Source: Heterodontus francisci
Lineage: Eukaryota
Length of the DNA stretch: 64,000 bases
Assembly (NCBI RefSeq): GCF_036365525.1
Contig: NC_090378.1
Coordinates: forward strand, 115,677,593 to 115,741,592
Reading direction: 5' to 3'
The number at the start of each line of letters is the position of its first letter. The first letter of the stretch is position 1. The translations under genes were made by a program, and so were the position numbers. The notes below the pieces were generated by a model that did not search any database, was not told where the DNA came from, and worked only from the letters and a program-made list of their open reading frames with translations. Shown here piece by piece: positions 801-51,641 of the stretch.

Positions 801-1199
801 TTTTGATTGGTGGAAATTGTGTCACCCAGATTGTCCAATCAGATGAGAATAAACCTGTTTCCATAGTAACTGACCTGGGGTGTCTGACCTGGGATGGGGG
901 GTCAATAATAATGATCAATAATTAGTCTGTGCTCATGAAGCGACTCCACCAGAACCCAGAGAGAATCGAATGAAGCAAAATGTCAAATCTCCAGAGCTGT
1001 GAGATTCTCACTGATGAAGACAGCAGCTCCTCGTCCTCTCGAAACTCCTCCATCCTTTCCCAATTCCTCACACCGTTCAGGGGAATGTTTTTGTCAACAC
1101 TCTCATCGACACATGTGGCAGCAATGCACAAAACAGGAAATATTTCCCAGATAGATAAGACAGGAGATTGAAGCAACTGTTTTAATACACCGTCTGTTT

Positions 1200-4100
1200 A
1201 TTATATAATAAATATAACTGTGGGATGTGTCAGTACAGGAGGTGGGACTGTGTGTCCATTATTATATATTATATTTAACTGTGGGATGTGTCAGTACAGG
1301 AGGTGGGACTGTGTGTCCATTATTATATATTATATTTAACTGTGGGATGTGTCAGTACAGGAGGTGGGACTGTGTGTCCATTATTATATATTATATATAA
1401 CTGTGGGATGTGTCAGTACAGGAGGTGGGACTGTGTGTCCATTATTATATATTATATATAACTGTGGGATGTGTCAGTACAGGAGGTGGGACTGTGTGTC
1501 CATTATTATATATTATATATAACTGTGGGATGTGTCAGTACAGGAGGTGGGACTGTGTGTCCATTATTATATATTATATATAACTGTGGGATGTGTCAGT
1601 GCAGGAGGTGGGACCGTGTGTCCATTATTATATATTATATATAACTGTGGGATGTGTCAGTACAGGAGGTGGGACTGTGTGTCCATTATTATATATTATA
1701 TATAACTGTGGGATGTGTCAGTACAGGAAGTGGGACTGTGTGTCCATTATTATATATTATATATAACTGTGGGATGTGTCAGTACAGGAGGTGGGACTGT
1801 GTGTCCATTATTATATATTATATATAACTGTGGGATGTGTCAGTACAGGAGGTGGGACTGTGTGTCCATTATCATAAATTATATATAACTGTGGGATGTG
1901 TCAGTAAAGGAGGTGGGACTGTGTGTCCATTATCATAAATTATATATAACTGTGGGATGTGTCAGTAAAGGAGGTGGGACTGTGTGTCCATTATTATATA
2001 TTATATATAACTGTGGGATGTGTCAGTACAGGAGGTGGGACTGTGTGTCCATTATCATAAATTATATATAACTGTGGGATGTGTCAGTAAAGGAGGTGGG
2101 ACTGTGTGTCCATTATCATAAATTATATATAACTGTGGGATGTGTCAGTAAAGGAGGTGGGACTGTGTGTCCATTATTATATATTATATATAACTGTGGG
2201 ATGTGTCAGTACAGGAGGTGGGACTGTGTGTCCATTATTATATATTATATATAACTGTGGGATGTGTCAGTACAGGAGGTGGGACTGTGTGTCCATTATC
2301 ATAAATTATATATAACTGTGGGATGTGTCAGTAAAGGAGGTGGGACTGTGTGTCCATTATTATATATTATATATAACTGTGGGATGTGTCAGTGCAGGAG
2401 GTGGGACCGTGTGTCCATTATTATATATTATATATAACTGTGGGATGTGTCAGTACAGGAGGTGGGACTGTGTGTCCATTATTATATATTATATATAACT
2501 GTGGGATGTGTCAGTACAGGAGGTGGGACTGTGTGTCCATTATCATAAATTATATATAACTGTGGGATGTGTCAGTACAGGAGGTGGGACTGTGTGTCCA
2601 TTATTATATATTATATATAACTGTGGGTTGTGTCAGTGCAGGAGGTGGGACCGTGTGTCCATTATTATATATTATATATAACTGTGGGATGTGTCAGTAC
2701 AGGAGGTGGGACTGTGTGTCCATTATTATATATTATATATAACTGTGGGATGTGTCAGTACAGGAGGTGGGACTGTGTGTCCATTATCATAAATTATATA
2801 TAACTGTGGGATGTGTCAGTACAGGAGGTGGGACTGTGAGTCCATTATTATATATTATATATAACTGTGGGTTGTGTCAGTGCAGGAGGTGGGACTGTGT
2901 GTCCATTATTATATATTATATATAACTGTGGGATGTGTCAGTACAGGAGGTGGGACTGTGTGTCCATTATTATATATTATATATAACTGTGGGATGTGTC
3001 AGTACAGGAGGTGGGACTGTGTGTCCATTATTATATATTATATATAACTGTGGGATGTGTCAGTACAGGAGGTGGGACCGTGTGTCCATTATTATATATT
3101 ATATATAACTGTGGGATGTGTCAGTACAGGAGGTGGGACTGTGTGTCCATTATTATATATTATATATAACTGTGGGATGTGTCAGTACAGGAGGTGGGAC
3201 TGTGTGTCCATTATTATATATTATATGTAACTGTGGGATGTGTCAGTACAGGAGGTGGGACTGTGTGTCGATTATTACATATTAAATATAACTGTGGGAC
3301 ATGTCAGTACAGGAGGTGGGACTGTGTGTCCATTATTATATATTATATGTAACTGTGGGATGTGTCAGTACAGGAGGTGGGACTGTGTGTCCATTATTAT
3401 ATATTATATATAACTGTGGGATGTGTCAGTACAGGAGGTGGGACTGTGTGTCCATTATTATATATTATATGTAACTGTGGGATGTGTCAGTACAGGAGGT
3501 GGGACTGTGTGTCCATTATTATATATTATATGTAACTGTGGGATGTGTCAGTACAGGAGGTGGGACTGTGTGTCCATTATTATATATTATATATAACTGT
3601 GGGATGTGTCAGTACAGGAGGTGGGACTGTGTGTCCATTATTATATATTATATGTAACTGTGGGATGTGTCAGTACAGGAGGTGGGACTGTGTGTCCATT
3701 ATTATATATTATATATAACTGTGGGATGTGTCAGTACAGGAGGTGGGACTGAGTGTCCATTATTATATATTATATATAACTGTGGGATGTGTCAGTACAG
3801 GAGGTGGGACTGTGTGTCCATTATTATATATTATATATAACTGTGGGATGTGTCAGTACAGGAGGTGGGACTGTGTGTCCATTATTATATATTATATATA
3901 ACTGTGGGATGTGTCAGTACAGGAGGTGGGACTGAGTGTCCATTATTATATATTATATATAACTGTGGGAAGTGTCAGTGCAGGAGGTGGGACTGTGTGC
4001 CCATTATTATATATTATATATAACTGTGGGATGTGTCAGTACAGGAGGTGGGACTGTGTGTCCATTATTATATATTATATGTAACTGTGGGATGTGTCAG

Positions 4101-7100
4101 TACAGGAGGTGGGACTGTGTGTCCATTATTATATATTATATATAACTGTGGGATGTGTCAGTACAGGAGGTGGGACTGTGTGTCCATTATTATATATTAT
4201 ATGTAACTGTGGGATGTGTCAGTACAGGAGGTGGGACTGTGTGTCCATTATTATATATTATATATAACTGTGGGATGTGTCAGTGCAGGAGGTGGGACTG
4301 TGTGTCCATTATTATATATTATATATAACTGTGGGTTGTGTCAGTGCGGGAGGTGGGACTGTGTGTCCATTATTATATATTATATATAACTGTGGGATGT
4401 GTCAGTGCAGGAGGTGGGACTGTGTGTCCATTATTATATATTACATATAACTGTGGGATGTGTCAGTGCAGGAGGTGGGACTGTGTGTCCATTATTATAT
4501 ATTATATATAACTGTGGGTTGTGTCAGTGCAGGAGGTGGGACTGTGTGTCCATTATTATATATTATATATAACTGTGGGATGTGTCAGTGCAGGAGGTGG
4601 GACTGTGTGTCCATTATTATATATTATATATAACTGTGGGATGTGTCAGTACAGGAGGTGGGACAGTGTGTCCATTATTATATATTACATATAACTGTGG
4701 GATGTGTCAGTCGAGGAGGTGGGACTGTGTGTCCATTATTATATATTATATATAACTGTGGGATGTATATTTGCAGGAGGTGGTACTGTGTGTCCATTAT
4801 TATATATTATATATAACTGTGGGATGTATATTTGCAGGAGGTGGTACTGTGTGTCCATTATTATATATTATATATAACTGTGGGATGTATATTTGCAGGA
4901 GGTGGTACTGTGTGTCCATTATTATATATTATATATAACTGTGGGATGTATATTTGCAGGAGGTGGTACTGTGTGTCCATTATTATATATTATATATAAC
5001 TGTGGGATGTATATTTGCAGGAGGTGGTACTGTGTGTCCATTATTATATATTATATATAACTGTGGGTTGTGTCAGTACAGGAGGTGGGACTGTGTGTCC
5101 ATTATTATATATTATATATAACTGTGGGATGTATATTTGCAGGAAGTGGTACTGTGTGTCCATTATTATATATTATATATAACTGTGGGATGTGTCAGTG
5201 CAGGAGGTGGGACTGTGCGTCCATTAATTTATATTATATATAACTGTGGGATGTATATTTGAAGGAGGTGGTACTGTGTGTCCATTATTATATATTATAA
5301 ATAACTGTGGGATGTATATTTGCAGGAGGTGGGACTGTGTGTCCATTATTTTATATTATATATAACTGTGGGATGTGTCAGTGCAGGAGGTGGGACTGTG
5401 CTTCCATTATTATATATTATATATAACTGTGGGATGTGTCAGTACAGGAGTTGGGACTGTGTGTCCTTTATTATATATTATATATAACTGTGGGATGTTT
5501 CAGTAGAGGAGTTGGGACTGTGTGTCCATTATTATGTATTATATATAACTGTGGGATGTGTCAGTACAGGAGTTGGGACTGTGTGTCCTTTATCATATAT
5601 TATATATAACTGTGGGATGTGTCAGTACAGGAGGTGGGGCTGTGTGTCCATTATTATATATTATATATAACTGTGGGATGTTTCAGTAGAGGAGTTGGGA
5701 CTGCATGTCCATTATTATATATTATATATAACTGAGGGATGTGTCAGTACAGCAGGTGGGACTGTGTGTCCATTATTTTATATTATATTTAACTGTGGGA
5801 TGTGTCAGTACAGGAGTTGGGACTGCGTGTCCATTATTATATATTATATATAACCGTGGGATGTTTCAGTAGAGGAGTTGGGACTGTGTGTCCATTATTA
5901 TATATTATATATAACTGTGGGATGTGTCAGTACAGCAGGTGGGACTGTGTGTCCATTATTTTATATTATATTTAACTGTGGGATGTGTCAGTACAGGAGT
6001 TGGGACTGCGTGTCCATTATTATATATTATATATAACTGTGGGATGTGTCAGTACAGCAGGTGGGACTGTGTGTCCATTATTATATATTATATATAACTG
6101 TGGGATGTTTCAGTAGAGGAGTTGGGACTGTGTGTCCATTATTATATATTATATATAACTGTGGGATGTTTCAGTAGAGGAGTTGGGACTGTGTGTCCAT
6201 TATTATATATTGTATATAACTGTGGGATATGTCAGTACAGGAGTTGGGACTGCATGTCCATTATTATATATTATATATAACTGTGGGATGTGTCAGTACA
6301 GGTGTTGGGACTGCGTGCCCATTATTATATATTATATATAACTGTGGGATATGTCAGTACAGGAGTTGGGACTGCATGTCCATTATTATATATTATATAT
6401 AACTGTGGGATGTTTTAGTAGAGGAGTTGGGACTGCGTGTCCATTATTATATATTATATATAACTGTGGGATGTTTCAGTAGAGGAGTTGGGACTGTGTG
6501 TCCATTATTATATATTATATATAACTGTGGGATGTTTCAGTAGAGGAGTTGGGACTGTGTGTCCTTTATTATGTATTATATATAACTGTGGGATGTTTCA
6601 GTAGAGGAGTTGGGACTGTGTGTCCATTATTATATATTATATATAACTGTGGGATGTTTCAGTAGAGGAGTTGGGACTGCGTGTCCATTATTATATATTA
6701 TATATAACTGTGGGATGTGTCAGTAAAGCAGGTGGGACTGTGTGTCCATTATTTTATATTATATATAACTGTGTGATGTGTCAGTACAGGAGTTGGGACT
6801 GCGTGTCCATTATTATATATTATATATAACTGTGGAATGTTTCAGTAGAGGAGTTGGGACTGCGTGTCCATTATTATATATTATATATAACTGTGGGATG
6901 TTTCAGTAGAGGAGTTGGGACTGTGTGTCCATTATTATATATTATATATAACTGTGGGATGTTTCAGTAGAGGAGTTGGGACTGTGTGTCCATTATTATA
7001 TATTATATATAACTGTGGGATGTGTCAGTACAGCAGGTGGGACTGTGTGTCCATTATTATATATCATATATAACTGTGTGATGTGTCAGTACAGGAGGTG

Positions 7101-10100
7101 GGACTGTGCTTCCATTATTATATATTATATATAACTGTGGGATGTGTCAGTACAGGAGTTGGGACTGTGTGTCCTTTATTATATATTATATATAACTGTG
7201 GGATGTTTCAGTAGAGGAGTTGGGACTGTGTGTCCATTATTATATGTAACTGTGGGATGTTTCACTAGAGGAGTTGGGACTGCGTGTCCATTATTATATA
7301 TTATATATAACTGTGGGATGTGTCAGGACAGCAGGTGGGACTGTGTGTCCATTATTTTATATTATATATAACTGTGTGGTCAGTACAGTAGTTGGGACTG
7401 CGTGTCCATTATTATATATTATATATAACTGTGGGATGTTTCAGTAGAGGAGTTGGGACTGCGTGTCCATTATTATATATTATATATAACTGTGGGATGT
7501 TTCAGGAGAGGAGTTGGGACTGTGTGTCCATTATTATATATTATATATAACTGTGGGATGTTTCAGTAGAGGAGTTGGGACTGTGTGTCCATTATTATAT
7601 ATTATATATAACTGTGGGATGTTTCAGTAGAGGAGTTGGGACTGTGTGTCCATTATTATATATTATATATAACTGTGGGATGTTTCAGTAGAGGAGTTGG
7701 GACTGTGTGTCCATTATTATATATTATATATAACTGTGGGATGTTTCAGTAGAGGAGTTGGGACTGCGTGTCCATTATTATATATTATATATAACTGTGG
7801 GATGTGTCAGTGCAGGAGTTGGGACTGCGTGTCCATTATTATATATTATATATAACTGTGGGATGTTTCAGTAGAGGAGTTGGGACTGTGTTTCCATTAT
7901 TATATATTATATATAACTGTGGGATGTGTCAGTACAGGAGGTGGGACTGTGTGTCCATTAATATATATTATACTTAACTGTGGGATGTGTCAGTACAGGA
8001 GTTCGGACTGTGTGTCCATTATTATATATTATATATAACTGTGAGATGTCAGTAAAAGAGGTGGGACTATTTGTCCATTATTATATATTATATATAACTG
8101 TGGGATGTGTCAGTCCAGGAGTTGGGACTGTGTGTCCATTATTATATATTTTATATAACTGTGAGATGTCAGTACAAGAGGTGGGACTGTGTGTCCATTA
8201 TTATATATTATATATAACTGTGAGATGTCAGTACAAGAGGTGGGACTGTTTGTCCATTATTATATATTATATATAACTGTGGGATGTGTCAGTACAGGAG
8301 TTGGGACTGTGTGTCCATTATTATATATTATATATAACTGTGAGATGTCAGTACAAGAGGTGGGACTGTTTGTCCATTATTATATATTATATATAACTGT
8401 GGGATGTGTCAGTAGAGGAGTTGGGACTGTGTGTCCATTATTATATATTATATATAACTGTGAGATGTCAGTACAAGAGGTGGGACTGTCAGTGCATTGT
8501 TATATATTATATATAACTGTGGGATGTGTCAGTGCCGCAGGTGGGACAGTGTGTCCATTACTATATATTATATTTAACTGTGGGATGTGTCAGTGCAGGA
8601 GGTGGGACTGTGCGTCCATTATTATATATTGTATATAACTGTGTGATGTGTCAGTACAGGAGGTGGGACTGTGTGTCCATTATTATATTTAATATGTAAC
8701 TGTGGGATATGTCAGTACAGGAGGTGGGACTGTGTGTCCATTATTATATATTGTATATAACTGTGTGATGTGTCAGTACAGGAGGTGGGACTATGTGGCC
8801 ATTATTATATTTAATATGTAACTGTGGGTTGTGACAGTACAGGAGGTGGGACTGTGTTTCCATTATTATATATTATATATAACTGTGCAATGTGTCAGTA
8901 CAGGAGGTGGGACTGTGTGTCCATTATTATATATTATATATAACTGTGCGATGTGTCAGTACAGGAGGTGGGACTGTGTGTCCATTATTATATATTATAT
9001 ATAACTGTGCGATGTGTCAGTACAGGAGGTGGGACTGTGTTTCCATTGTTATATATTATATATAAAAGTGCGATGTGTCAGTACAGGAGGTGGGACTGTG
9101 TTTCCGTTGTTATATATTATATATTACTGTGGGATGTGTCAGTCGAGGAGGTGGGACTGTGTGTCCATTATTATATATTATATATATCTGTGGGATGTGT
9201 CAGTACAGGAGGTGGGACTGTGTGTCCATTATAATGTATTATATATAACTGTGGGATGTGTCAGTACAGCAGGTGGGACCATGTGCCCATTATTATTTAT
9301 TATATATAACTGTGGGATGTGTCAGTACCTGAGGTGGGACTGTGTGTCCATTATTATATATTATATATAACTGTGGGACGTGTCAGTACAGGAGGTGGGA
9401 CTGTGTTTCCATTATTATTTATTATATATAACTGTGGGATGTGTCAGTACAGGAGGTGGGACTGTGTGTCCATTATTATTTATTATATATAACTGTGGGA
9501 TGTGTCAGTACCTGAGGTGGGACTGTGTGTCCATTATTATATATTATATATAACTGTGGGATGTGTCAGTACAGGAGGTGGGACTGTGTGTCCATTATTA
9601 TATATTATATATAACTGTGGGATGTGTCAGTACAGGAGGTGGGACTGTGTGTCCATTATTATATATTATATATAACTGTGGGATGTGTCAGTACATGAGG
9701 TGGGACTGTGTGTCCATTATTATATATTATATATAACTGTGGGATGTGTCAGTACAGGAGGTGGGACTGTGTGTCCATTATTATATATTATATATAACTG
9801 TGGGATGTGTCAGTACATGAGGTGGGACTGTGTGTCCATTATTATATATTATATATAACTGTGGGATGTGTCAGTACAGGAGGTGGGACTGTGTGTCCAT
9901 TATTATATATTATATATAACTGTGGGATGTGTCAGTACATGAGGTGGGACTGTGTGTCCATTATTATATATTATATATAACTGTGGGATGTGTCAGTACA
10001 GGAGGTGGGACAGTGTGTCCATTATTATTTATTATATATAACTGTGGGATGTGTCAGTACAGGAGTTGGGACTGCGTGTCCATTATTATATATCATATAT

Positions 10101-13100
10101 AACTGTGGGATGTTTCAGTCGAGGAGTTGGGACTGCGTGTCCATTATTATATATTATATATAACTGTGGGATGTTTCAGTAGAGGAGTTGGGACTGTGTG
10201 TCCATTATTATATATTGTATATAACTGTGGGCTGTGTCAGTCGAGGAGTTGGGACTGCGTGTCCATTATTATATATTATATATAACTGTGGGATGTTTCA
10301 GTAGAGGAGTTGGGACTGTGTGTCCATTATTATATATTGTATATAACTGTGGGATGTGTCAGTACAGGTGTTGGGACTGCATGTCCATTATTATATATTA
10401 TATGTAACTGTGGGATGTTTCAGTAGAGGAGTTGGGACTGTGTGTCCATTATTATATATTGTATATAACTGTGGGCTGTGTCAGTACAGGAGTTGGGACT
10501 GCGTGTCCATTATTATATATTATATATAACTGTGGGATGTGTCAGTGCAGGAGGTGGGACTGTGTGTCCATTATTATATATTATATATAACTGTGGGATG
10601 TTTCAGTACAGGAGGTGGGACTGCGTGTCCATTATTATATATTATATATAACTGTGGGATGTGTCAGTGCAGGAGGTGGGACTGTGCGTCCATTAATTTA
10701 TATTATATATAACTGTGGGATGTATATTTGAAGGAGGTGGTACTGTGTGTCCATTATTATATATTATAAATAACTGTGGGATGTATATTTGCAGGAGGTG
10801 GGACTGTGTGTCCATTATTTTATATTATATATAACTGTGGGATGTGTCAGTGCAGGAGTTGGGACTGTGTGTCCTTTATTATATATTATATATAACTGTG
10901 GGATGTTTCAGTAGAGGAGTTGGGACTGTGTGTCCATTATTATGTATTATATATAACTGTGGGATGTGTCAGTACAGGAGTTGGGACTATGTGTCCTTTA
11001 TCATATATTATATATAACTGTGGGATGTTTCAGTAGAGGAGTTGGGACTGCGTGTCCATTATTATATATTATATATAACTGTGGGATGTGTCAGTACAGG
11101 AGGTGGGGCTGTGTGTCCATTATTATATATTATATATAACTGTGGGATGTTTCAGTAGAGGAGTTGGGACTGCGTGTCCATTATTATATATTATATATAA
11201 CTGTGGGATGTGTCAGTACAGCAGGTGGGACTGTGTGTCCATTATTTTATATTATATTTAACTGTGGGATGTGTCAGTACAGGAGTTGGGACTGCGTGTC
11301 CATTATTATATATTATATATAACTGTGGGATGTTTCAGTAGAGGAGTTGGGACTGCGTGTCCATTATTATATATTATATATAACTGTGGGATGTTTCAGT
11401 AGAGGAGTTGGGACTGTGTGTCCATTATTATATATTGTATATAACTGTGGGATATGTCAGTACAGGAGTTGGGACTGCATGTCCATTATTATATATTATA
11501 TATAACTGTGGGATATGTCAGTACAGGAGTTGGGACTGCATGTCCATTATTATATATTATATATAACTGTGGGATGTGTCAGGACAGGTGTTGGGACTGC
11601 GTGCCCATTATTATATATTATATATAACTGTGGGATATGTCAGTCCAGGAGTTGGGACTGTGTGTCCATTATTATATATTATATATAACTGTGGGATGTT
11701 TCAGTAGAGGAGTTGGGACTGCGTGTCCATTATTATATATTATATATAACTGTGGGATGTTTCAGTAGAGGAGTTGGGACTGTGTCCATTATTATATATT
11801 ATATATAACTGTGGGATGTTTCAGTAGAGGAGTTGGGACTGTGTGTCCTTTATTATGTATTATATATAACTGTGGGATGTTTCAGTAGAGGAGTTGGGAC
11901 TGTGTGTCCATTATTATATATTATATATAACTGTGGGATGTGTCAGTACAGGAGGTGGGACTGTGCTTCCATTATTATATATTATATATAACTGTGGGAT
12001 GTTTCAGTAGAGGAGTTGGGACTGTGTGTCCATTATTATATATTATATATAACTGTGGGATGTTTCAGTAGAGGAGTTGGGACTGCGTGTCCATTATTAT
12101 ATATTATATATAACTGTGGGATGTGTCAGTAAAGCAGGTGGGACTGTGTGTCCATTATTTTATATTATATATAACTGTGTGATGTGTCAGTACAGGAGTT
12201 GGGACTGCGTGTCCATTATTATATATTATATATAACTGTGGAATGTTTCAGTAGAGGAGTTGGGACTGCGTGTCCATTATTATATATTATATATAACTGT
12301 GGGATGTTTCAGTAGAGGAGTTGGGACTGTGTGTCCATTATTATATATTATATATAACTGTGGGATGTTTCAGTAGAGGAGTTGGGACTGTGTGTCCATT
12401 ATTATATATTATATATAACTGTGTGATGTGTCAGTACAGGAGGTGGGACTGTGCTTCCATTATTATATATTATATATAACTGTGGGATGTGTCAGTACAG
12501 GAGTTGGGACTGTGTGTCCTTTATTATATATTATATATAACTGTGGAATGTTTCAGTAGAGGAGTTGGGACTGAGTTGGGACAGAGGCGCAAGGGGAGAG
12601 CCAACTGTGCAACAGCCCCAACAAACAAATTTCTCTGCAGCACCTGTGGAAGAGCCTGTCACTCCAGAATTGGCCTTTATAGCCACTCCAGGCGCTGCTT
12701 CACAAACCACTGACCACCTCCAGGCGCGTATCCATTGTCTCTCGAGATAAGGAGGCCCAAAAGAAAGAAAGAAAAAAGAATATATAACTGTGGGATGTTT
12801 CAGTAGAGGAGTTGGGACTGTGTGTCCATTATTATATATAACTGTGGGATGTTTCAGTAGAGGAGTTGGGACTGCGTGTCCATTATTATATATTATATAT
12901 AACTGTGGGATGTGTCAGGACAGCAGGTGGGACTGTGTGTCCATTATTTTATATTATATATAACTGTGTGGTCAGTACAGGAGTTGGGACTGCGTGTCCA
13001 TTATTATATATTATATATAACTGTGGGATGTTTCAGTAGAGGAGTTGGGACTGCGTGTCCATTATTATATATTATATATAACTGTGGGATGTTTCAGGAG

Positions 13101-16100: not shown

Positions 16101-19100
16101 CCATTATTATATATTATATATAACTGTGGGATGTTTCAGTACAGGAGGTGGGACTGTGTGTCCATTATTATATATTGTATATAACTGTGGGATGTGTCAG
16201 TACAGGAGTTGGGACTGCATGTCCATTATTATATATTATATGTAACTGTGGGATGTTTCAGTAGAGGAGTTGGGACTGTGTGTCCATTATTATATATTGT
16301 ATATAACTGTGGGCTGTGTCAGTACAGGAGTTGGGACTGCGTGTCCATTATTATATATTATATATAACTGTGGGATGTGTCAGTGCAGGAGGTGGGACTG
16401 CGTGTCCATTATTATATATTATATATAACTGTGGGATGTTTCAGTCGAGGAGTTGGGACTGTGTGTCCATTATTATATATTATATATAACTGTGGGATGT
16501 GTCAGTACAGGAGGTGGGACTGTGTGTCCATTATTATATATTGTATATAACTGTGTGATGTGTCAGTACAGGAGGTGGGACTATGTGTCCATTATTATAT
16601 TTAATATGTAACTGTGGGTTGTGACAGTACAGGAGGTGGGACTGTGTTTCCATTATTGTATATTATATATAACTGTGCGATGTGTCAGTACAGGAGGTTG
16701 GACTATGTGTCCATTATTATATTTAATATGTAACTGTGGGTTGTGACAGTACAGGAGGTGGGACTGTGTTTCCATTACTATATATTATATATAACTGTGC
16801 GATGTGTCAGTACAGGAGGTGGGACTGCGTGTCCATTATTATATATTATATATAACTGTGGGATGTGTCAGTGCAGGAGGTGGGACTGCGTGTCCATTAT
16901 TATATATTATATATAACTGTGGGATGTTTCAGTCGAAGAGTTGGGACTGTGTGTCCATTATTATATATTATATATAACTGTGGGATGTGTCAGTACAGGA
17001 GGTGGGACTGTGTGTCCATTATTATATATTGTATATAACTGTGTGATGTGTCAGTACAGGAGGTGGGACTATGTGTCCATTATTATATTTAATATGTAAC
17101 TGTGGGTTGTGACAGTACAGGAGGTGGGACTGTGTTTCCATTATTATATATTATATATAACTGTGCGATGTGTCAGTACAGGAGGTGGGACTATGTGTCC
17201 ATTATTATATTTAATATGTAACTGTGGGTTGTGACAGTACAGGAGGTGGGACTGTGTTTCCATTACTATATATTATATATAACTGTGCGATGTGTCAGTA
17301 CAGGAGGTGGGACTGTGTGTCCATTATTATATATTATATATAACTGTGCGATGTGTCAGTACAGGAGGTGGGTCTGTGTTTCCATTGTTATATATTATAT
17401 ATAAATGTGCGATGTGTCAGTACAGGAGGTGGGACTGTGTTTCCATTGTTATATATTATATATAACTGTGGGATGTGTCAGTCGAGGAGGTGGGACTGTG
17501 TGTCCATTATTATATATTATATATAACTGTGGGATGTGTCAGTACAGGAGGTGGGACTGTGTGTCCATTATTATGTATTATATATAACTGTGGGATGTGT
17601 CAGTACAGCAGGTGGGACCGTGTGCCCATTATTATTTATTATATATAACTGTGGGATGTGTCAGTACCTGAGGTGGGACTGTGTGTCCATTATTATATAT
17701 TATATATAACTGTGGGACGTGTCAGTACAGGAGGTGGGACTGTGTTTCCATTATTATTTATTATATATAACTGTGGGATGTGTCAGTACAGGAGGTGGGA
17801 CTGTGTGTCTATTATTATTTATTATATATAACTGTGGGATGTGTCAGTACCTGAGGTGGGACTGTGTGTCCATTATTATATATTATATATAACTGTGGGA
17901 TGTGTCAGTACATGAGGTGGGACTGTGTGTCCATTATTATATATTATATATAACTGTGGGATGTGTCAGTACAGGAGGTGGGACTGTGTGTCCATTATTA
18001 TATATTATATATAACTGTGGGATGTGTCAGTACATGAGGTGGGACTGTGTGTCCATTATTATATATTATATATAACTGTGGGATGTGTCAGTACAGGAGA
18101 TGGGACTGTGTGTCCATTATTATTTATTATATATAACTGTGGGATGTGTCAGTACAGGAGTTGGGACTGCGTGTCCATTATTATATATCATATATAACTG
18201 TGGGATGTTTCAGTAGAGGAGTTGGGACTGCGTGTCCATTATTATATATTATATATAACTGTGGGATGTTTCAGAACAGGAGTTGGGACTGTGTGTCCAT
18301 TATTATATATTGTATATAACTGTGGGCTGTGTCAGTACAGGAGTTGGGACTGTGTGTCCATTATTATATATTGTATATAACTGTGGGCTGTGTCAGTACA
18401 GGAGTTGGGACTGCGTGTCCATTATTATATATTATATATAACTGTGGGATGTTTCAGTAGAGGAGTTGGGACTGTGTGTCCATTATTATATATTATATAT
18501 AACTGTGGGATGTTTCAGTAGAGGAGTTGGGACTGTGTGTCCTTTATTATATATTATATATAACTGTGGGATGTTTCAGTAGAGGAGTTGGGACTGTGTG
18601 TCCATTATTATATATTATAGATAACTGTGGGATGTGTCAGTACAGCAGGTGGGACTGTGTGTCTATTATTATATATTATATATAACTGTGTGATGTGTCA
18701 GTGCAGGAGGTGGGACTGTGCTTCCATTATTATATATTATATATAACTGTGGGATGTGTCAGTACAGGAGTTGGGACTGTGTGTCCTTTATTATATATTA
18801 TATATAACTGAGGGATGTTTCAGTAGAGGAGTTGGGACTGTGTGTCCATTATTATATATTATATATCACTGTGTGATGTCTCAGTACAGGAGTTGGGACT
18901 GTGTGTCCATTATTATATATTGTATATAACTGTGGGATGTGTCAGTACAGGAGGTGGGTTTGTGTGTCCATTCTTACATATTATATATAACTGTGTGATG
19001 TCTCAGTACAGGAGGTGGGACTGTGTGTCCATTATTATATATTATATGTAACTGTGTGATGTCTCAGTACAGGAGTTGGGACTGTGTGTCCATTATTATA

Positions 19101-22100
19101 TATTGTATATAACTGTGGGATGTGTCAGTACAGGAGGTGGGTTTGTGTGTCCATTCTTACATATTATATATAACTGTGGGATGTGTCAGTACAGGAGATG
19201 GGACTGTGTGTCCATTATTATTTATTATATATAACTGTGGGATGTGTCAGTACAGGAGTTGGGACTGTGTGTCCATTATTATATATTGTATATAACTGTG
19301 GGCTGTGTCAGTACAGGAGTTGGGACTGCGTGTCCATTATTATATATTATATATAACTGTGGGATGTGTCAGTACAGGAGTTGGGACTGCATGTCCATTA
19401 TTATATATTATATGTAACTGTGGGATGTTTCAGTAGAGGATTTGGGACTGCGTGTCCATTATTATATATTATATATAACTGTGGGATGTTTCAGTAGAGG
19501 AGTTGGGACTGCGTGTCCATTATTATATATTATATATAACTGTGGGATGTTTCAGTAGAGGAGTTGGGACTGCGTGTCCATTATTATATATTATATATAA
19601 CTGAGGGATGTGTCAGTGCGGGAGGAGGGACTGTGTGTCCATTATTATATATTATATATAACTGTGGGATGTGTCAGTACAGCAGGTGGGACTGTGAGTC
19701 CATTATTTTATATTATATATAACTGTGTGATGTGTCAGTACAGGAGTTGGGACTGTGTGTCCATTATTATATATTATATATAAATGTGAGATGTTTCAGT
19801 AGAGGAGTTGGGACTGCGTGTCCATTATTTTATATTATATATAACTGTGGGATGTTTCAGTAGAGGAGTTGGGTCTGTGTGTCCATTATTATATATTATA
19901 TATAACTGTGGGATGTTTCAGTAGAGGAGTTGGGACTGTGTGTCCTTTATTATATATTATATATAACTGTGGGATGTTTCAGTAGAGGAGTTGGGACTGT
20001 GTGTCCATTATTATATATTATAGATAACTGTGGGATGTGTCAGTACAGCAGGTGGGACTGTGTGTCCATTATTATATATTATATATAACTGTGTGATGTG
20101 TCAGTGCAGGAGGTGGGACTGTGTGTCCTTTATTATATATTATATATAACTGTGGGATGTTTCAGTAGAGGAGTTGGGACTGTGTGTCCATTATTATATA
20201 TTATAGATAACTGTGGGATGTGTCAGTACAGCAGGTGGGACTGTGCTTCCATTATTATATATTATAAATAACTGTGGGATGTGTCAGTACAGGAGTTGGG
20301 ACTGTGTGTCCTTTATTATATATTATATATAACTGAGGGATGTTTCAGTAGAGGAGTTGGGACTGTGTGTCCATTATTATATATTATATATAACTGTGTG
20401 ATGTCTCAGTACAGGAGTTGGGACTGTGTGTCCATTATTATATATTGTATATAACTGTGGGATGTGTCCGTACAGGAGGTGGGTTTGTGTGTCCATTCTT
20501 ACATATTATATATAACTGTGTGATGTCTCAGTACAGGAGATGGGACTGTGTGTCCATTATTATATATTATATGTAACTGTGGGATGTGTCAGTACAGGAG
20601 TTGGGACTGTGTGTCCATTAATTTATATTGTATATAACTGTGTGATGTCTCAGTACAGGAGGTGGGACTGTGTGTCCATTATTATATATTATATATAACT
20701 GTGTGATGTGTCAGTACAGGAGGTGGGACTGTGTGTCCATTATTATATATTATATATAACTGTGGGATGTGTCAGTACAGGAGGTGAGACTGTCTGTCCA
20801 TTATTATATATTATATATAACTGTGGGATGTTTCAGTAGAGGAGTTGGGACTGTGTGTCCTTTATTATATATTATATATAACTGTGGGATGTTTCAGTAG
20901 AGGAGTTGGGACTGTGTGTCCATTATTATATATTATAGATAACTGTGGGATGTGTCAGTACAGCAGGTGGGACTGTGTGTCCATTATTATATATTATATA
21001 TAACTGTGGGATGTGTCAGTACAGGAGTTGGGACTGTGTGTCCATTATTATATATTATATATAACTGAGGGATGTTTCAGTAGAGGAGTTGGGACTGTGT
21101 GTCCATTATTATATATTATATATAACTGTGTGATGTCTCAGTACAGGAGTTGGGACTGTGTGTCCATTATTATATATTGTATATAACTGTGGGATGTGTC
21201 AGTACAGGAGGTGGGTTTGTGTGTCCATTCTTACATATTATATATAACTGTGTGATGTCTCAGTACAGGAGGTGGGACTGTGTGTCCATTATTATATATT
21301 ATATGTAACTGTGGGATGTGTCAGTACAGGAGTTGGGACTGTGTGTCCATTATTTTATATTGTATATAACTGTGTGATGTCTCAGTACAGGAGGTGGGAC
21401 TGTGTGTCCATTATTATATATTATATATAACTGTGTGATGTGTCAGTACAGGAGGTGGGACTGTGTGTCCATTATTATATATTATATATAACTGTGGGAT
21501 GTGTCAGTACAGGAGGTTTGACTGTCTGTCCATTATTATATATTATATATAACTGTGGGATGTGTCAGTACAGGAGGTGGGACTGTGTGTCCATGATTAT
21601 ATATTATATTTAACTGTGGGATGTGTCAGTGCATGAGGTGGGACTGTCTGTCAATTATTATATATTATATATAACTGTGGGATGTGTCAGTACATGAGGT
21701 GGGACTGTGCGTCCATTATTATGTATTATATATAACTGTGGGATGTGTCAGTACATGAGGTGGGACTGTGCGTCCATTATTATGTATTATATATAACTGT
21801 GGGACGTGTCAGTGCAGCAGGTGGGACTGTGTGTCCATTCTTATATTTTATATATAACTGTGGGATGTGTCAGTACCGGAGGTGGGACTTTGTGTCCATT
21901 ATTATATTTTATATATAACTGTGGGATGTGTCAGTACCAGAGGTGGGACTGTGTGTCCATTAATATATATTATATATAACTGTGGGATGTGTCAGTACAG
22001 GAGCTGGGAGTGTGTGTCCATTATTATATATTATATATAACTGTGGGATGTGTCAGGACAGGAGGTGGGACTGTGTGCCCATTATTATATATTATATCTC

Positions 22101-25100
22101 ACTGTGGGATGTGTCAGTACAGGAGGTGGGACTGTGTGCCCATTATTATATATTATATATAACTGTGGGACGTGTCAGTACAGGAGGTGGGACTGTGTGC
22201 CCATTATTATATATTATATATAACTGTGGGACATGTCAGTACAGGAGGTGGGACTGTGTGTCCATTATTATATATTATATATAACTGTGGGATGTGTCAG
22301 TACAGGCGGTGGGACTGTGTGCCCATTATTATATATTATATATAACTGTGGGATGTGTCAGTACAGGAGGTGGGACTGTGTGCCCATTATTATATACTAT
22401 ATATAACTGTGGGATGTGTCAGTACAGGAGGTGGGACTGTGTGCCCATTATGATATATTGTCTATAACTGTGGGACGTGTCAGTCCAGGAGGTGGGACTG
22501 TGTGTCCATTGTTATATATTATATATAACTGTGGAATGTGTCAGTACAGGAGGTGGGACTGTGTGTCCATTATTATATTTAATATGTAACTGTGGGTTGT
22601 GACAGTAGATGAGGTGGGACTGTGTGTCCATTATTATATATTATATATAACTGTGGGATGTGCCAGTACAGGAGGTGGGACTGTGTGCCCATTATTATAT
22701 ATTATATATAACTGTGGGATGTGTCAGTACAGGAGGTGGGACTGTGTGTCCATTATTATATTTAATATGTAACTGTGGGTTGTGACAGTAGATGAGGTGG
22801 GACTGTGTGCCCATTATTATATATTATATATAACTGTGGGATGTGCCAGTCCAGGAGGTGGGACTGTGTGCCCATTATTATATATTATATATAACTGTGG
22901 GATGTGCCAGTACAGGAGGTGGGACTGTGTGCCCATTATTATACATTATATATAACTGTGGGATGTGTCAGTACAGGAGGTGGGACTGTGTATCCATTAT
23001 TATATATTATATATAACTGTGGGATGTGTCAGTACAGGAGGTGGGACTGTGTGTCCATTATTATATATTATATATAACTGTGGGATGTGTCAGTACAGGA
23101 GGTGGGACTGTGTGTCCATTATTATATTTAATATGTAACTGTGTTATGTGTCAGTGCAGGAGGTGGGACTGGGTGTCCATTATTATATATTGTATCTAAC
23201 TGTGGGATGTCTCAGTACAGGAGGTGGAACTGTGTTTTCATTATTATGTATTATATATAACTGTGGGATGTGTCAGTGCAGGAGGTGGGACTGTGTGTCC
23301 ATTAATATATATTGTATATAACTGTGGGATGTCTCAGTACGGGAGGTGGGACTGTGTGTCCATTATTAGATATTATATATAACTGTGTTATGTGTCAGTG
23401 CAGGAGGTGGGACTGGGTGTCCATTATTATATATTGTATCTAACTGTGGGATGTCTCAGTACAGGAGGTGGAACTGTGTTTTCATTATTATGTATTATAT
23501 ATAACTGTGGGATGTGTCAGTGCAGGAGGTGGGACTGTGTGTCCATTAATATATATTGTATATAACTGTGGGATGTCTCAGTACGGGAGGTGGGACTGTG
23601 TGTCCATTATTAGATATTATATATAACTGTGTGATGTGTCAGCACAGGAGTTGCGACTGTGTTTCCATTGTTATATATTATATATAACTGTGGGATGTGT
23701 CAATACAGGAGGTGGGACTGTGCGTCCATTATTATGTATTATATATAACTGTGGGATGTGTCAGTGCAGGAGGTGGGACTGTGTGTCCATTAATATATAT
23801 TGTATATAACTGTGGGATGTCTCAGTACAGGAGGTGGGACTGTGTGTCCATTGTTATATATTATAAAAAACTGTGGGATGTGTCAATACATGAGGTGGGA
23901 CTGTGTGTCCATTATTATATATTATATATAACTGTGGGATGTGTCAGTACAGGAGTTGCGACTGTGTTTCCATTGTTATATATTATATATAACTGTGGGA
24001 TGTGTCAGTACAGGAGGTGGGACTGTGTGTCCATTATTATGTATTATATATAACTGTGGGATGTGTCAGTGCAGGAGGTGGGACTGTGTGTCCATTATTA
24101 TGTATTATATATAACTGTGGGATATGTTAGTACAGGAGGTGGGACTGTGTGTCCAATATTATATATTATATATAACTGTAGGATGTGTCAGTGCAGGAGG
24201 TGGGACTGTGTGTCCATTAGTTTATATTATATATAACTGTGGGATGTGTCAGTACAGGAGGTGGGACTGTGTGTCCATTATTATATATTATATATAACTC
24301 TGGGATGTGTCAGTACAGGTGGTGGGACTGTGTGTCCATTATTATATATTATATATAACTGTGGGATGTGCCAGTACAGGAGGTGGGACTGTGTGCCCAT
24401 TATTATATATAACTGTGGGATGTGTCAGTACAGGAGGTGGGACTGTGTGTCCATTATTATATATTATATATAACTGTGGGATGTGTCAGTGCGGGAGGTG
24501 GGACTGTGTGTCCATTATTATATATTATATATAACTGTGGGATGTGTCAGTACAGGAGGTGGGACTGTGTGTCCATTATTATATATTATATATAACTGTG
24601 GGATGTGTCAGTGCAGGAGGTGGGACTGTGTGTCCATTATTATATATTATATATAACTGTGGGATGTGTCAGTACAGGAGGTGGGACTGTGTGTCCATTA
24701 TTATATATTATATATAACTGTGGGATGTGCCAGTACAGGAGGTGGGACTGTGTGCCCATTATTATATATAACTGTGGGATGTGTCAGTACAGGAGGTGGG
24801 ACTGTGTGTCCATTATTATATATTATATATAACTGTGGGATGTGTCAGTGCGGGAGGTGGGACTGTGTGTCCATTATTATGTATTATATATAACTGTGGG
24901 ATGTGCCAGTACAGGAGGTGGGACTGTGTGCCCATTATTTATATTATATATAACTGTGGGATGTGTCAGTACAGGAGGTGGGACTGTGTGTCCATTATTA
25001 TATATTATATATAACTGTGGGATGTGTCAGTACAGGAGGTGGGACTGTGTGTCCATTATTATATATTATATATAACTGTGGGATGTGTCAGTACAGGAGG

Positions 25101-28100
25101 TGGGACTGTGTGTCCATTATTATATATTATATATAACAGTGGGATGTGTCAGTACAGGAGGTGGGACTGTGTGTCCATTATTATATATTATATATAACTG
25201 TGGGATGTGTCAGTACAGGAGGTGGGACTGTGTGTCCATTATTATATATTATATATAACTGTGGGATGTGTCAGTACAGGAGGTGGGACTGTGTGTCCAT
25301 TATTATATATTATATATAACAGTGGGATGTGTCAGTACAGGAGGTGGGACTGTGTGTCCATTATTATATATTATATATAACTGTGGGATGTGTCAGTACA
25401 GGAGGTGGGACTGTGTGTCCATTATTATATATTATATATAACTGTGGGATGTGTCAGTACAGGAGGTGGGACTGTGTGTCCATTATTATATATTATATAT
25501 AACTGTGAGATGTGCCAGTACAGGAGGTGGGACTGTGTGCCCATTATTATATATTATATATAACTGTGGGATGTGTCAGTACAGGAGGTGGGACTGTGTG
25601 TCCATTATTATTTATTATATATAACTGTGGGACGTGTCAGTACAGGAGGTGGGACTGTGTGTCCATTATTATATATTATATATAACTGTGGGACGTGCCA
25701 TTACAGGAGGTGGGATTGTGTGTCCATTATTATATATTATATATAACTGTGGGATGTGCCAGTACAGGAGGTGGGACTGTGTGCCCATTATTATATATTA
25801 TATATAACTGTGGGATGTGTCAGTACAGGAGTTGGGACTGTGTTTTCATTATTATGTATTATATATAATTGTGGGATGTGTCAGTCCAGGAGTTGGGACA
25901 GTGTGCCCATTATTATATATTATATATAACTGTGGGACGTGTCAGTACAGGAGGTGGGACTGTGTGCCCATTATTATATATTATATATAACTGTGGGACG
26001 TCTCAGTACAGGAGGTGGGACTGAGTTTTCATTATTATGTATTATATATAACTGTGGGATGTGTCAGTGCAGGAGGTGGGACTGTGTGTCCATTAATATA
26101 TATTATATATAACTGTGGGATGTCTCAGTACAGGAGGTGGGACTGTGTGTCCATTGTTATATATTATATATAACTGTGGGATGTGCCAGTACAGGAGGTG
26201 GGACTGTGTGCCCATTATTATATATTATATATGACTGTGGGATGTGCCAGTACAGGAGGTGGGACTGTGTGTCCATTGTTATATATTATATATAACTGTG
26301 GAATGTGTCAGTGCAGGAGGTGGGACTGTGTGTCCATTAATATATATTGTATATAACTGTGGGATGTCTCAGTACAGGAGGTGGGACTGTGTGTCTATTA
26401 ATATATATTGTATATAACTGTGGGATGTCTCAGTACAGGAGGTGGGACTGTGTGTCCATTAATATATATTGTATATAACTGTGGGATGTCTCAGTACAGG
26501 AGGTGGGACTGTGTTTTCATTATTATATATTGTATATAACTGTGGGATGTCTCAGTACAGGAGGTGGGACTGTGTTTTCATTATTATGTATTATATATAA
26601 CTGTGGGATGTGTCAGTGCAGGAGGTGGGACTGTGTGTCCATTAATATATATTGTATATAACTGTGGGATGTCTCAGTACAGGAGGTGGGACTGTGTGTC
26701 TATTAATATATATTGTATATAACTGTGGGATGTCTCAGTACAGGAGGTGGGACTGTGTGTCCATTAATATATATTGTATATAACTGTGGGATGTCTCAGT
26801 ACAGGAGGTGGGACTGTGTGTCTATTAATATATATTGTATATAACTGTGGGATGTGTCAGTACAGGAGGTGGGACTGTGTGTCCATTAATATATATTGTA
26901 TATAACTGTGGTATGTCTCAGTACAGGAGGTGGGACTGAGTTTTCATTATTATGTATTATATATAACTGTGGGATGTGTCAGTGCAGGAGGTGGGACTGT
27001 GTGTCCATTAATATATATTGTATATAACTGTGGGATGTCTCAGTATAAGAGGTGGGACTGTGTGTCCATTATTATATATTATATATAACTGTGGGATGTG
27101 TCAGTATAGGAGGTGGGACTGTGTGTCCATTATTATATATTATCTATAACTGTGGGGTGTGTCATTCCAGCAGGTGGGACCATGTGACCATTATTATATA
27201 TTATATATAACTGTGGGATGTGTCAGTATAGGAGGTGGGACTGTGTGTCCATTATTATATATTATATATAACTGTGGGATGTGTCTGTACAGGAGGTGGG
27301 ACTGTGCGTCCATTATTATATATTATATATAACTGTGGGATGTGTCAGTATAGGAGGTGGGACTGTGTTTCCATTATTATATATTATTTATAACTGTGGG
27401 ATGTGTCAGTATCGGAGGTGGGACTGTGTTTCCATTATTATATATTATATATAACTGTGGGATGTGTCAGTATAGGAGGTGGGACTGTGTTTCCATTATT
27501 ATATATTATTTATAACTGTGGGATGTGTCAGTATCGGAGGTGGGACTGTGTTTCCATTATTATATATTATATATAACTGTGGGATGTGTCAGTGCAGGAG
27601 GTGGGACTGTGTGTCCATTATTATATATTATATATAACTGTGGGATGTGTCAGTATAGGAGGTGGGACTGTGTTTCCATTATTATATATTATATATAACT
27701 GTGGGATATGTCAGTACAGGAGGTGGGACTGTGTGTCCATTATTATGTATTATATATAACTGTGTGATGTCTCAGTACAGGAGGTGGGACTGTGTTTCCA
27801 TTATTATATATTATATGTCATTGTGTGATGTCTCAGTACAGGAGGTGGGACTGTGTGTTTATTATTATATATTGTATATAACTGTGGGATGTGTCAGTAC
27901 AAGAGGTGGGACTGTGTATCCATTATTATAAATTATATATAACTGTGGGATGTGTCAGTACAGGAGGTGGGACTGTGTGTCCATTATTATATATTATATA
28001 TAACTGTGGGATGTGTCAGTATAGGAGGTGGGACTGTGTTTCCATTATTATATATTATATATAACTGTGGGATGTGTCAGTACAAGAGGTGGGACTGTGT

Positions 28101-29505
28101 ATCCATTATTATAAATTATATATAACTGTGGGATGTGTCAGTACAAGAGGTGGGACTGTGTATCCATTATTATATATTATATATAACTGTGAGATGTGTC
28201 AGTACAGGAGGTGGGACTGTGTATCCATTATTATAAATTATATATAACTGTGGGATGTGTCAGTACAAGAGGTGGGACTGTGTATCCATTATTATAAATT
28301 ATATATAACTGTGGGATGTGTCAGTACAAGAGGTGGGACTGTGTGTCCATTATTATAAATTATATATAACTGTGGGATGTGTCAGTACAGGAGGTGGGAC
28401 TGTGTGTCCATTATTATATATTATATATAACTGTGGGATGTGTCAGTACAAGAGGTGGGACTGTGTGTCCATTATTATAAATTATATATAACTGTGGGAT
28501 GTGTCAGTCCAGGAGGTGGGACTGTGTGCCCATTATTATAGATTGTATATAACTGTGGAATGTGTCAGTGCAGGAGTTGGAACTTTGTGTCCATTGTAAT
28601 ATATTATATCTAACTGTGGGATGTGTCAGTGCAGGAGGTGGGACTGTGTGTCCATTATTATATATTATATCTAACTGTGGGATGTGTCAGTACAGGAGGT
28701 GGGACTGTGTGTCCATTATTATATATTATATATAACTGTGGGATGTGTCAGTGCAGGAGGTGGGACTGTGTGCCCATTATTATATATTATATATAACTGT
28801 GGGATGTGTCAGTGCAGGAGTTGGAACTTTGTGTCCATTGTAATATATTATATCTAACTGTGGGATGTGTCAGTGCAGGAGGTGGGACTGTGTGTCCATT
28901 ATTATATATTATATATAACTGTGGGATGTGTCAGTACAGGAGGTGGGACTGTGTGCCCATTATTATATATTATATCTAACCGTGGGATGTGTCAGAGCAG
29001 GAGGTGGGACTGTGTGTCCATTATTATATATTATATATAACTGTGGGATGTGTCAGTGCAGATGGTGGGACTGTGTGCCCATTATTATATATTATATATA
29101 ACTGTGGGATGTGTCAGTGCAGGAGTTGGAACTTTGTGTCCATTGTAATATATTATATCTAACTGTGGGATGTGTCAGTACAGGAGGTGGGACTGTGTGC
29201 CCATTATTATATATTATATCTAACCGTGGGATGTGTCAGTGCAGATGGTGGGACTGTGTGCCCATTATTATATATTATATATAACTGTGGGACGTGTCAG
29301 TACAGGAGGTGGGACTTTGTGTCCATTATTTTATATTATCTGTAACTCTGGGATGTCTCAGTTCAGGAGGTGGAACTGTCTGTCCATTATTATATATTAT
29401 ATATAGCTGCGGGATGTGTCATTACAGGAGGTGGGACTGTGTTTCCATTATTATATATTATATATAACTGTGGGATGTGTCAGTACAGGAGGTGGGACAG
29501 TGTGT
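1200..29505. repeat. 61-bp tandem satellite, ~460 units, ~28.3 kb
   Basis: Consensus AACTGTGGGATGTGTCAGTACAGGAGGTGGGACTGTGTGTCCATTATTATATATTATATAT repeated continuously. Variants cluster regionally; occasional 54/57/59-bp units. Confidence 0.99.
12573..12780 (+). mobile_element. 5'-truncated RTE-clade LINE 3' end inserted in the satellite
   Basis: Encodes FLCSTCGRACHSRIGLYSHSRRC (C-terminal Cys/His motif typical of RTE-clade ORFs). Short 3' UTR, (GAAA)n tail, and a ~39-bp target-site duplication (12534-12572 / 12781-12819, 1 mismatch). Confidence 0.8.
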
Positions 29506-29510
29506 ATTGA

Positions 29511-29538
29511 GGTTTTTGTAAGGCTCTGTTTCACTGTG
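29511..29538 (-). promoter_or_regulatory. V(D)J recombination signal sequence with 12-bp spacer
   Basis: Minus strand reads CACAGTG-aaacagagcctt-ACAAAAACC: consensus heptamer and nonamer, exactly 12-bp spacer, directly 3' of the V coding end. Confidence 0.98.
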
Positions 29539-29836
29539 TAGGGGCTGCTGTATCCTTGCATACAGTAATAATTTGCAACATCCTCACTCTGTACATTACT
29601 GATTGTCAGAGTGTATTTGGTGTTCTGTTGACTGCCGGTGAATCGGTCAGATGTTCCTGTGAAACGATATGTTCCAGCATTGATCAGGAGAGTGGGTTTC
29701 TGACCTTCTCGTTGCTGATACCAAGAAACAAAATTGCTAACGTACTCGCTGGCCGTACAGGTGATAGTTGCGGTCTGTCCCAGTCTCACTGACAGTGTCG
29801 GTGGAGACTGGGTCATGATGATGTCTCCACTGATAC
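29539..29836 (-). CDS. IGKV: Immunoglobulin light-chain V exon, kappa (type III/NS4-like), germline unrearranged
   Basis: Acceptor ...ccctcag|GT ATC AGT GGA. Translates (G)ISG-DIIMTQSPPTLSVRLGQTATITCTASEYVSNFVSWYQQREGQKPTLLINAGTYRFTGTSDRFTGSQQNTKYTLTISNVQSEDVANYYCMQGYSSP, with both Cys, WYQQ and YYC intact. A 12-RSS is the kappa configuration. Confidence 0.95.
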
Positions 29837-51538: not shown

Positions 51539-51556
51539 TAACCCATTTGTTTTTAT

Positions 51557-51622: not shown

Positions 51623-51641
51623 TTTTTTTTTAATCTAACCC

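Follow-up and report, generated by a model that had tools for sequence, protein, structure and literature searches.

The 64,000-nt stretch of Heterodontus francisci DNA analysed here (the window) carries an immunoglobulin kappa V gene that is separated from its J by a tandem array of 61-bp units. On balance, we favour the view that this is an expressed, intact Ig-kappa V-J-C minicluster whose spacer is filled by a kappa-specific satellite, likely of single origin, likely inherited and likely a tolerated passenger. The usual textbook case for joining over a few hundred bases, without long-range folding, is that of shark antibody genes, as presented in excerpts of PMC2435157. Here, a whole isotype rearranges over 7.5-217 kb of a single repeat.

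An intact kappa cluster divided by a satellite

The features of the cluster are collected in Table 1. The first-pass annotation had described a V with an intact open frame, splice sites and a perfect RSS, all of which were borne out, and a domain search identified a V-set Pfam domain (E 1.7e-16). This V belongs to cluster 1 of 28 and is the most divergent, at ~90% to its nearest paralogues. Examination of the adjacent DNA for J and C, as had been proposed, located both to the left of the window. The V-J distance is 31,261 bp, in agreement with the suggestion that a spacer repeat had pushed J more than 29 kb away. The alternative offered, an orphaned V, is ruled out, as an intact J and C adjoin the left edge of the window and pieces specific to this V are present in RNA contigs. 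The 29.5 kb downstream of V were reported to lack J and any 23-RSS; the window indeed contains neither a J motif nor a 23-RSS in J orientation, but the array holds 23-spacer RSS-like sites on the V strand. At the C exon, identity reaches 94-98% with named Heterodontus francisci kappa light chains and 84% with a nurse-shark light chain, and the C domain is 81-88% identical to other shark kappa-like chains. The assignment of the gene to Ig-kappa is thus supported by sequence identity, with chain names taken as the sources give them and not from a tree. A PDB sequence search did not tell the isotypes apart.

Table 1. Features of the kappa cluster in and beside the window (window positions unless marked C8)
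Feature	Position	Strand	Details
Non-array tail, start	1..1197	-	~2.9 kb separating the array from J; homologous across clusters; runs on outside the window
61-bp satellite	1198..29505	-	TRF: one array, period 61, ~465 copies, 92% matches
186-bp retrotransposon 3' fragment inside array	~12570..12780	.	approximate coordinates
12-RSS	29511..29538	-	perfect heptamer and nonamer, CACAGTG-12-ACAAAAACC
V-kappa exon	29539..29836	-	open frame, no stops; GSQQNTKY present
Leader intron	29837..30022	-	186 nt, GT..AG; skipped in spliced contigs
V-kappa leader exon (MISPIQLIWPLAFCVA)	30023..30071	-	spliced leader-V contigs in runs X5/X6 skip 186 nt
J 23-RSS and J (FTFGKGTKLRLS)	C8:115675908-115675830		~1.7 kb left of base 1
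J 23-RSS			GGATATTGT-23-CAGTGTG; outside the window, at the end of the non-array tail
C-kappa exon	~C8:115667886-115668203		~9.4 kb left of the window

The 28-kb array described beside the V nonamer is real, although it begins only 5 nt away, slightly under the ~10 nt first given. On the V strand the modal unit reads CACAGTT-23 nt-ACACAGTCC followed by 22 nt. It thus mimics a 23-RSS, with 4 mismatches, and is oriented like the V RSS; the array contains 326 such V-strand sites with at most 4 mismatches. An internal block of ~5.4-5.5 kb is duplicated; block duplications of this kind are only local, and no fixed higher-order repeat was found. The 186-bp insert ends in the same sequence as longer, RT-bearing inserts of paralogous arrays. 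Because the RSSs of V and J point toward one another, a join removes the array, as had been anticipated.

The satellite across the kappa locus and beyond

Matches to V, J and C numbered 28 each, at 115.7-124.8 Mb of C8. V and J alternate strictly across the locus, with a single V, a single J and a single C per cluster. All 28 V frames are open, no cluster is germline-joined, and in every cluster a V with a 12-RSS faces a J with a 23-RSS. The array is likewise present in 28/28 clusters, always starting 5 nt behind the nonamer. The arrays span 3.3-211 kb and comprise 55-3,387 units per cluster (~24,000 in total); V-J distances run from 7,537 to 216,649 bp with a median of 48,950 bp, a 29-fold spread. 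The first-pass annotation had expected one to a few units in paralogous spacers. Finding 55 or more in every cluster instead places the expansion in the whole isotype rather than in the window's cluster and rules out a single-cluster accident.

The repeat is close to exclusive to these spacers. Counting exact matches to three unit stretches over 6 Gb placed 3,194/3,200, 10,403/10,464 and 11,068/11,086 of them inside the 28 spacers (99.4-99.8%), leaving 6, 61 and 18 outside. These three exact-match counts rule out a dispersed or generic satellite, and the expected specificity for kappa V-J spacers held. A second species, represented by one 501-nt contig of X8, also has the unit behind its V RSS, and tandem copies occur under two to three other organism labels, X7 and X17 among them. 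In X19 (organism E), contigs cover the RSS and reach 31 nt into the unit; missing coverage in an RNA run does not speak against the array being present there.

An assembly artefact, with arrays over-expanded or clusters falsely multiplied, would account for four twin pairs (6/12, 9/23, 10/22 and 11/21) that show 0 differences in V and tail. Because of this identity the pairs may be false duplications, which would leave 24 distinct clusters. As an explanation of the satellite itself we regard such an artefact as very improbable: the 1.59 Mb of kappa spacers contain no N, 4,374 distinct unit variants occur in an order specific to each cluster, transposon inserts are independent, and the unit recurs in the contig and labels of other organisms. 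Unit variants are common mainly to sister clusters, and between sisters with 1-7 V differences array length differs up to 3.4-fold. We propose that the satellite arose by tandem duplication of sequence directly behind the V nonamer, likely once, that cluster duplications likely passed it on, and that arrays would have grown and shrunk by unequal exchange or slippage.

Joining across the array, and what the array may do

Spliced, V-J-joined kappa transcripts were found in contigs of runs X5 and X6, which were judged to be RNA by their spliced joints. In both runs, loose ends at the end of V continue into J without heptamer remnants, which marks these junctions as recombination joins; the same feature rejects splicing through the heptamers, the route drawn in two gene models from databases. 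At one junction the J is a variant present in only 2/28 clusters, with V-J distances of 22.6 and 28.5 kb. The making of such joined transcripts indicates that these shark kappa genes recombine over long distances. A search of RNA for the window V, also proposed earlier, recovered three pieces identical to it and with 6-9 mismatches to any other V; its junction evidence consists of 3 unaligned letters in one contig (X5 record 15). Since the runs represent one sample stored as contigs, with few junctions assignable to a single cluster, they give no ranking of cluster usage.

V and J would be brought into synapsis across 7.5-217 kb through long-range folding, whether loop extrusion or diffusion of the mouse Igk kind, and the array would leave as a large excision circle. 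Tolerance of the array is likely, since each V-J join would have it removed by RAG. In this passenger scheme the array would have no selected function, and longer arrays would probably lower the joining rate of their cluster as a side effect; the array may slow or bias gene use. Its RSS-like columns behave neutrally, being no better conserved than the others (0.056 vs 0.068, p=0.27), and column conservation detected no selection on the RSS mimic. Neutral behaviour also shows in the rapid length change between sisters, in the sharing of variants mainly by sisters, in an unremarkable CTCF-core match and in the 26 transposon-type inserts that the arrays tolerate. Against a passenger stand the absence of any array-free cluster (0/28; minimum 55 units), the fixed start and the unit behind the second species' V RSS; retention, fixed start and second-species presence also fit selection.

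These observations, together with the near-exclusive location, also speak for a different and rather unlikely reading: each array would be a selected, self-deleting brake on its cluster, acting through distance and repressive chromatin from a position like that of mouse Cer/Sis. Such a throttle would keep the rearrangement chance per cluster low, set usage by length, guard against germline joining and help a B cell with ~56 kappa alleles to express one. Cer and Sis do sit in the mouse V-J interval and are lost at primary joining, according to excerpts of PMC12820099. Germline-joined kappa genes number 0/28 here vs at least 5 in nurse shark, where spacers are ~500 bp, and horn-shark type III genes were reported as all split (both from portions of PMC2193156), but this link to germline joining comes from two lineages only. 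Array length, moreover, varies 29-fold and shifts fast between sisters, which counts against a brake. A reading of the array as a CTCF array was not supported: the best core matched 11/14 positions of a core consensus, 198/3,000 shuffles were as good, and no tail contained a core with at most 1 mismatch. Array contigs and unrearranged V-RSS-array contigs are present in the RNA runs, so any silencing of the array is incomplete.

The resemblance of the unit to a 23-RSS raises a further, improbable explanation, in which the V 12-RSS joins an array unit by inversion, inactivating the cluster and thinning the live kappa clusters per cell, much as the mouse RS element does but from inside the V-J interval. 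In the arrays, 15,968 V-strand sites carry CAC and depart from the ideal 23-RSS at no more than 4 positions (864 at no more than 3), compared with 0 on the opposite strand and 1-3 per strand in the flanking 120 kb; the real J RSS itself has 3 mismatches. In the available part of PMC11153149, strong off-target RSSs are set aside by a threshold of no more than 4 mismatches, and an excerpt of bioRxiv 10.64898/2026.04.12.717890 describes the mouse RS 23-RSS joining V-kappa. In shuffles the resemblance is rare, with 30/5,000 as good (a post hoc comparison). In the mimic nonamer, however, only one of the three central A residues is present, and the RSS columns show neither extra conservation nor drift toward consensus. 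Among the joints listed for 1,729 and 1,320 V-end contigs, none runs from V to the array with a change of strand, a weak test because contigs drop rare variants.

Unlikely as we judge it, each array could be a selected self-excising regulator, a length-variable brake built from distance, chromatin and perhaps thousands of 23-RSS decoys able to invert V. Cluster usage would in that case follow array length, which would also enforce one light chain per cell (~56 alleles) and block germline joining, and within-cluster distances reaching the between-cluster scale would offer miniclusters a path to a translocon. The 24-28 near-identical clusters constitute a natural dose series for the effects of distance and intervening chromatin on RAG joining and light-chain exclusion, as their RSSs are nearly the same while V-J distance differs 29-fold. 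Two distances from V to the J of the next cluster (105 and 107 kb) fall below three within-cluster distances (124, 124 and 217 kb), making the rule of within-cluster joining directly testable. Arrays of this kind would hinder resolution of the kappa locus by short reads or germline PCR; an earlier description of the spacer satellite was not found in the literature searched, a 1994 horn-shark paper lying outside that search.

Comparison with known antibody loci

Elasmobranch Ig-kappa clusters (horn-shark type III, nurse-shark NS4) have, like those described here, one V with a 12-RSS, one J with a 23-RSS and one C. Type III horn-shark kappa genes are all split in the account given in part of PMC2193156, as are the present 28 clusters. 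The same source, in the part available, gives nurse-shark V-J distances of 502-524 bp, in contrast to the 7.5-217 kb of satellite found here, and three other split V-J loci measured 303-506 bp. A short spacer of ~0.5 kb, typical of elasmobranch kappa but not defining it, is therefore absent here.

The V-J interval of mouse Igk, with Cer and Sis, is likewise long and deleted at primary joining, and tens to hundreds of kb are bridged there too. Mouse Igk forms one translocon that has four CTCF sites, whereas the shark locus consists of 28 one-V clusters with tandem arrays and no significant CTCF core. As with mouse RS and the human kappa-deleting element, a 23-spacer signal could remove the V-kappa 12-RSS from productive use. 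RS, however, consists of one canonical RSS, located downstream of C, and deletes C, while the thousands of degenerate putative sites here lie upstream of J and could only invert.

Shark IgM miniloci share the cluster organisation, and the IgH cluster compared here fits V-D-D-J into 1,238 bp. Nurse-shark IgM, in excerpts of PMC2435157, has intersegment distances of ~400 bp and rearranges without long-distance recombination or locus contraction. The present kappa spacers, in contrast, reach the scale of at least 120 kb that, in the same excerpts, separates whole nurse-shark IgM miniloci.

The window V gene and its spacer

The array of 61-bp units in the window starts 5 nt behind the V nonamer, and a search for a J across the window found none. 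The first-pass annotation had described an array behind a perfect V RSS with no J in the window, and both observations were borne out on re-examination. Its suggestion that the V might be an orphan did not hold, as 120 kb fetched leftward revealed a J (FTFGKGTKLRLS) with a 23-RSS ~1.7 kb and an open C exon ~9.4 kb beyond the left window edge. This J lies 31,261 bp from the V heptamer. Since the V and J RSSs face each other, the array is lost when V joins J. Identity of the C exon to Heterodontus francisci proteins named kappa light chain is 94-98%, and the 28 clusters described below belong to the elasmobranch kappa family. The spacer is what sets these clusters apart.

Features of the window, with positions therein
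Feature	Position	Strand	Details
61-bp unit array	1198-29505		465 copies, 92% matches; only array of this unit in the window
Insert in the array			186 bp; only one within this array
12-RSS	29538-29511	minus	perfect; directly 3' of V exon
V exon	29539-29836	minus	open frame
V leader intron		minus	186 nt, GT..AG
V leader	30023-30071	minus	
Tandem array, 44-bp unit	33349-35190		upstream of V; smaller, unrelated
Tandem array, 32-bp unit	40824-41258		upstream of V; smaller, unrelated
Tandem array, 23-bp unit	41382-41594		upstream of V; smaller, unrelated
Separate LINE	43171-47021		esterase-like ORF1
~6.87-kb tandem unit	47500-64000		three GC-rich copies with endonuclease-RT LINE frame
LINE frame of ~6.87-kb unit	57583-61341		1,252 aa

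Array-filled spacers in 28 kappa clusters

Genome searches found 28 V, every frame open, with 28 J on chromosome C8 and 28 C within 9.2 Mb. V and J alternate strictly, and 15 clusters lie on the minus and 13 on the plus strand. All 28 V-J intervals were retrieved whole and contained no N. The array begins at the same point in every cluster, 5 nt behind the nonamer, and 2.8-5.4 kb separate its far end from J. V-J distances are 7,537-216,649 bp (median 48,950), and the arrays, of 3.3-211 kb each, total about 24,000 units or 1.49 Mb. Four cluster pairs are near-identical twins, which may have arisen by recent duplication or in the assembly; merging them leaves 24 clusters with a median of 46.5 kb. 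That the arrays or clusters are an assembly artefact is very improbable; the arrangement is real, and the whole kappa isotype is built with array-filled V-J spacers.

Exact genome-wide counts of three unit stretches were 3,200, 10,464 and 11,086 (reversed controls, 0), with 3,194, 10,403 and 11,068 matches, respectively, inside the 28 V-J intervals. The 15 control loci comprised three split V-J loci (303, 373 and 506 bp), one IgH V-D-D-J locus spanning 1,238 bp, five germline-joined genes (four light-chain-like, one heavy-chain-like) and six others (one orphan J, two V arrays and three without a recognised V-J pair). The array was absent from all 15, the sole trace being an isolated 16-nt motif match in one locus (L252). 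The 61-bp repeat is thus specific to kappa V-J spacers.

The 22,525 regular units represent 4,374 distinct variants, shared chiefly between sister clusters. Sister clusters whose V sequences differ at 1-7 of 330 nt have arrays that differ 1.1- to 3.4-fold in length. This fits arrays that were inherited via cluster duplication and then probably reshaped by rapid unequal exchange. The 26 inserts make up 1.5% of array sequence, several with long open reverse-transcriptase-like frames. One young LINE family, presumably RTE-like from its appearance, has repeatedly inserted in the AT-rich part of the unit (clusters 1, 7, 9, 10, 13, 17, 22, 23 and 28). Its inserts reach up to 3.4 kb, with a 1,069-aa open frame in cluster 13, and some were subsequently copied together with array blocks.

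The kappa locus (G000:C8:115.67-124.82 Mb) is two-armed, with the minus-strand clusters followed by the plus-strand ones. Clusters 9-10-11 are mirrored as 23-22-21, with V and tail (the non-array stretch before J) identical and arrays a few units apart, reflecting either a recent inverted duplication or an assembly duplicate. All 28 clusters share one J 23-RSS nonamer, which departs from the canonical form by 2 mismatches; the cluster 13 J has one additional heptamer change. Two distances from a V to the next cluster's J, 105 kb (C8:117096925 to 116991926) and 107 kb (C8:123936671 to 124043318), are shorter than the within-cluster distances of clusters 10, 22 and 28, and inter-cluster deletional joins are therefore geometrically plausible. 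On a different chromosome (G000:C2:125446302), an orphan J-kappa (L070/L250) has a decayed 23-RSS and neither V nor array in the 7.8 kb upstream; its similarity to the kappa clusters ends shortly past J.

Contigs of other organisms also carried the unit. One 501-nt contig of organism C (run X8) covers V, RSS and 39 nt of unit with 66 differences and 5 gaps, and 16 contigs go on in unit sequence. Contigs of organism D (X17) include an exact 61-nt tandem and those of organism E (X19) an RSS with the initial 31 nt of the unit; in organism B (X7), array contigs and V contigs are not linked to each other. The motif behind the V RSS in other organisms indicates that it is older than Heterodontus francisci.

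Transcripts and V-J joining

Two runs, X5 and X6, represent one sample with a guessed RNA label, as contigs that cannot rank cluster usage. Both contain leader-V contigs skipping the 186-nt intron. Loose contig ends at the V end run directly into J without heptamer remnants, clearly in four rows and partially in two consensus rows. Because the assembly contains no pre-joined kappa gene, any such junction must bridge 7.5 kb or more of germline sequence. A J variant present only in clusters 19 and 25 (V-J 22.6 and 28.5 kb) appears in one of them, though a single mutation or added base might imitate it. The spliced leader-V and V-J-joined contigs show that kappa genes with array-filled spacers function. 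Three RNA pieces match the window's V exactly, the next paralogue being 6, 8 and 9 mismatches away; one window-V piece reaches the final V base and its last 3 letters diverge from the heptamer, a weak hint that the window's own cluster rearranges. Contigs reading from V through the RSS into the array were also present, consistent with germline transcription.

Two database gene models (P0002, P0003) join germline V to J with the array as an intron and are probably prediction artefacts. One takes its splice donor GT from the V heptamer and its acceptor AG from the J heptamer, giving the in-frame junction YPLHMWFTF; no junction of this type was among those seen in X5 and X6.

Possible roles of the array

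On the V strand the unit resembles a 23-RSS with 4 mismatches; the real J RSS has 3. Such sites number 15,968 on the V strand and 0 on the other (12-spacer sites, 14). Given their orientation, any joint between one of them and the V RSS would have to be an inversion, inactivating the cluster. Shuffles were as RSS-like as the unit in only 30 of 5,000 cases (post hoc), and the abundance of these mimics would fit a decoy field for RAG. However, the unit nonamer is weak, the RSS-like columns are no better conserved than others (p=0.27) and no strand-changing V-to-array joint was listed among the V-end contigs of the RNA runs, and we consider decoys unlikely. CAC trinucleotides in the arrays are concentrated on the V strand (96,286 versus 1,037) and therefore face the J RSS. 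In mouse, CAC sites facing an RSS take very low-level off-target joins in RAG scanning (PMC11153149).

The unit was not supported as a CTCF site, as its 11 of 14 matches to a core consensus were equalled by 198 of 3,000 shuffles. At two other loci, L249 (C761) and L254 (C407), a V with a 23-RSS is followed ~35 nt on by a far better CTCF-like motif.

The main competing explanation is that the array is a selected throttle that helps exclusion or prevents germline joining. Array loss and germline joining were each found in 0 of 28 clusters, and the short-spacer nurse-shark kappa has been germline-joined at least five times (PMC2193156). These observations point towards a throttle, which we regard as possible but doubtful. 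We somewhat favour a tolerated passenger that is deleted at joining, with RAG bridging the distance via long-range folding. Removal at V-J joining would make the array tolerable. RAG would span the V-J distance by folding of the kind described for mouse Igk (PMC12820099, PMC11153149), and sharks may, by analogy, do the same.

No description of a satellite-filled kappa spacer was found among the titles and abstract openings listed for shark light chains, spacers and satellites, although the founding paper on horn-shark type III (Rast 1994) may hold a partial observation; the available portions of PMC5192425, PMC12227049 and PMC13320880 do not mention one. The horn-shark V-J distances of 7,537-216,649 bp contrast with the 502-524 bp given for the orthologous nurse-shark NS4 spacer in PMC2193156. 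They also contradict the picture drawn from nurse-shark IgH, in which rearrangement is short-range and contraction-free (PMC2435157).
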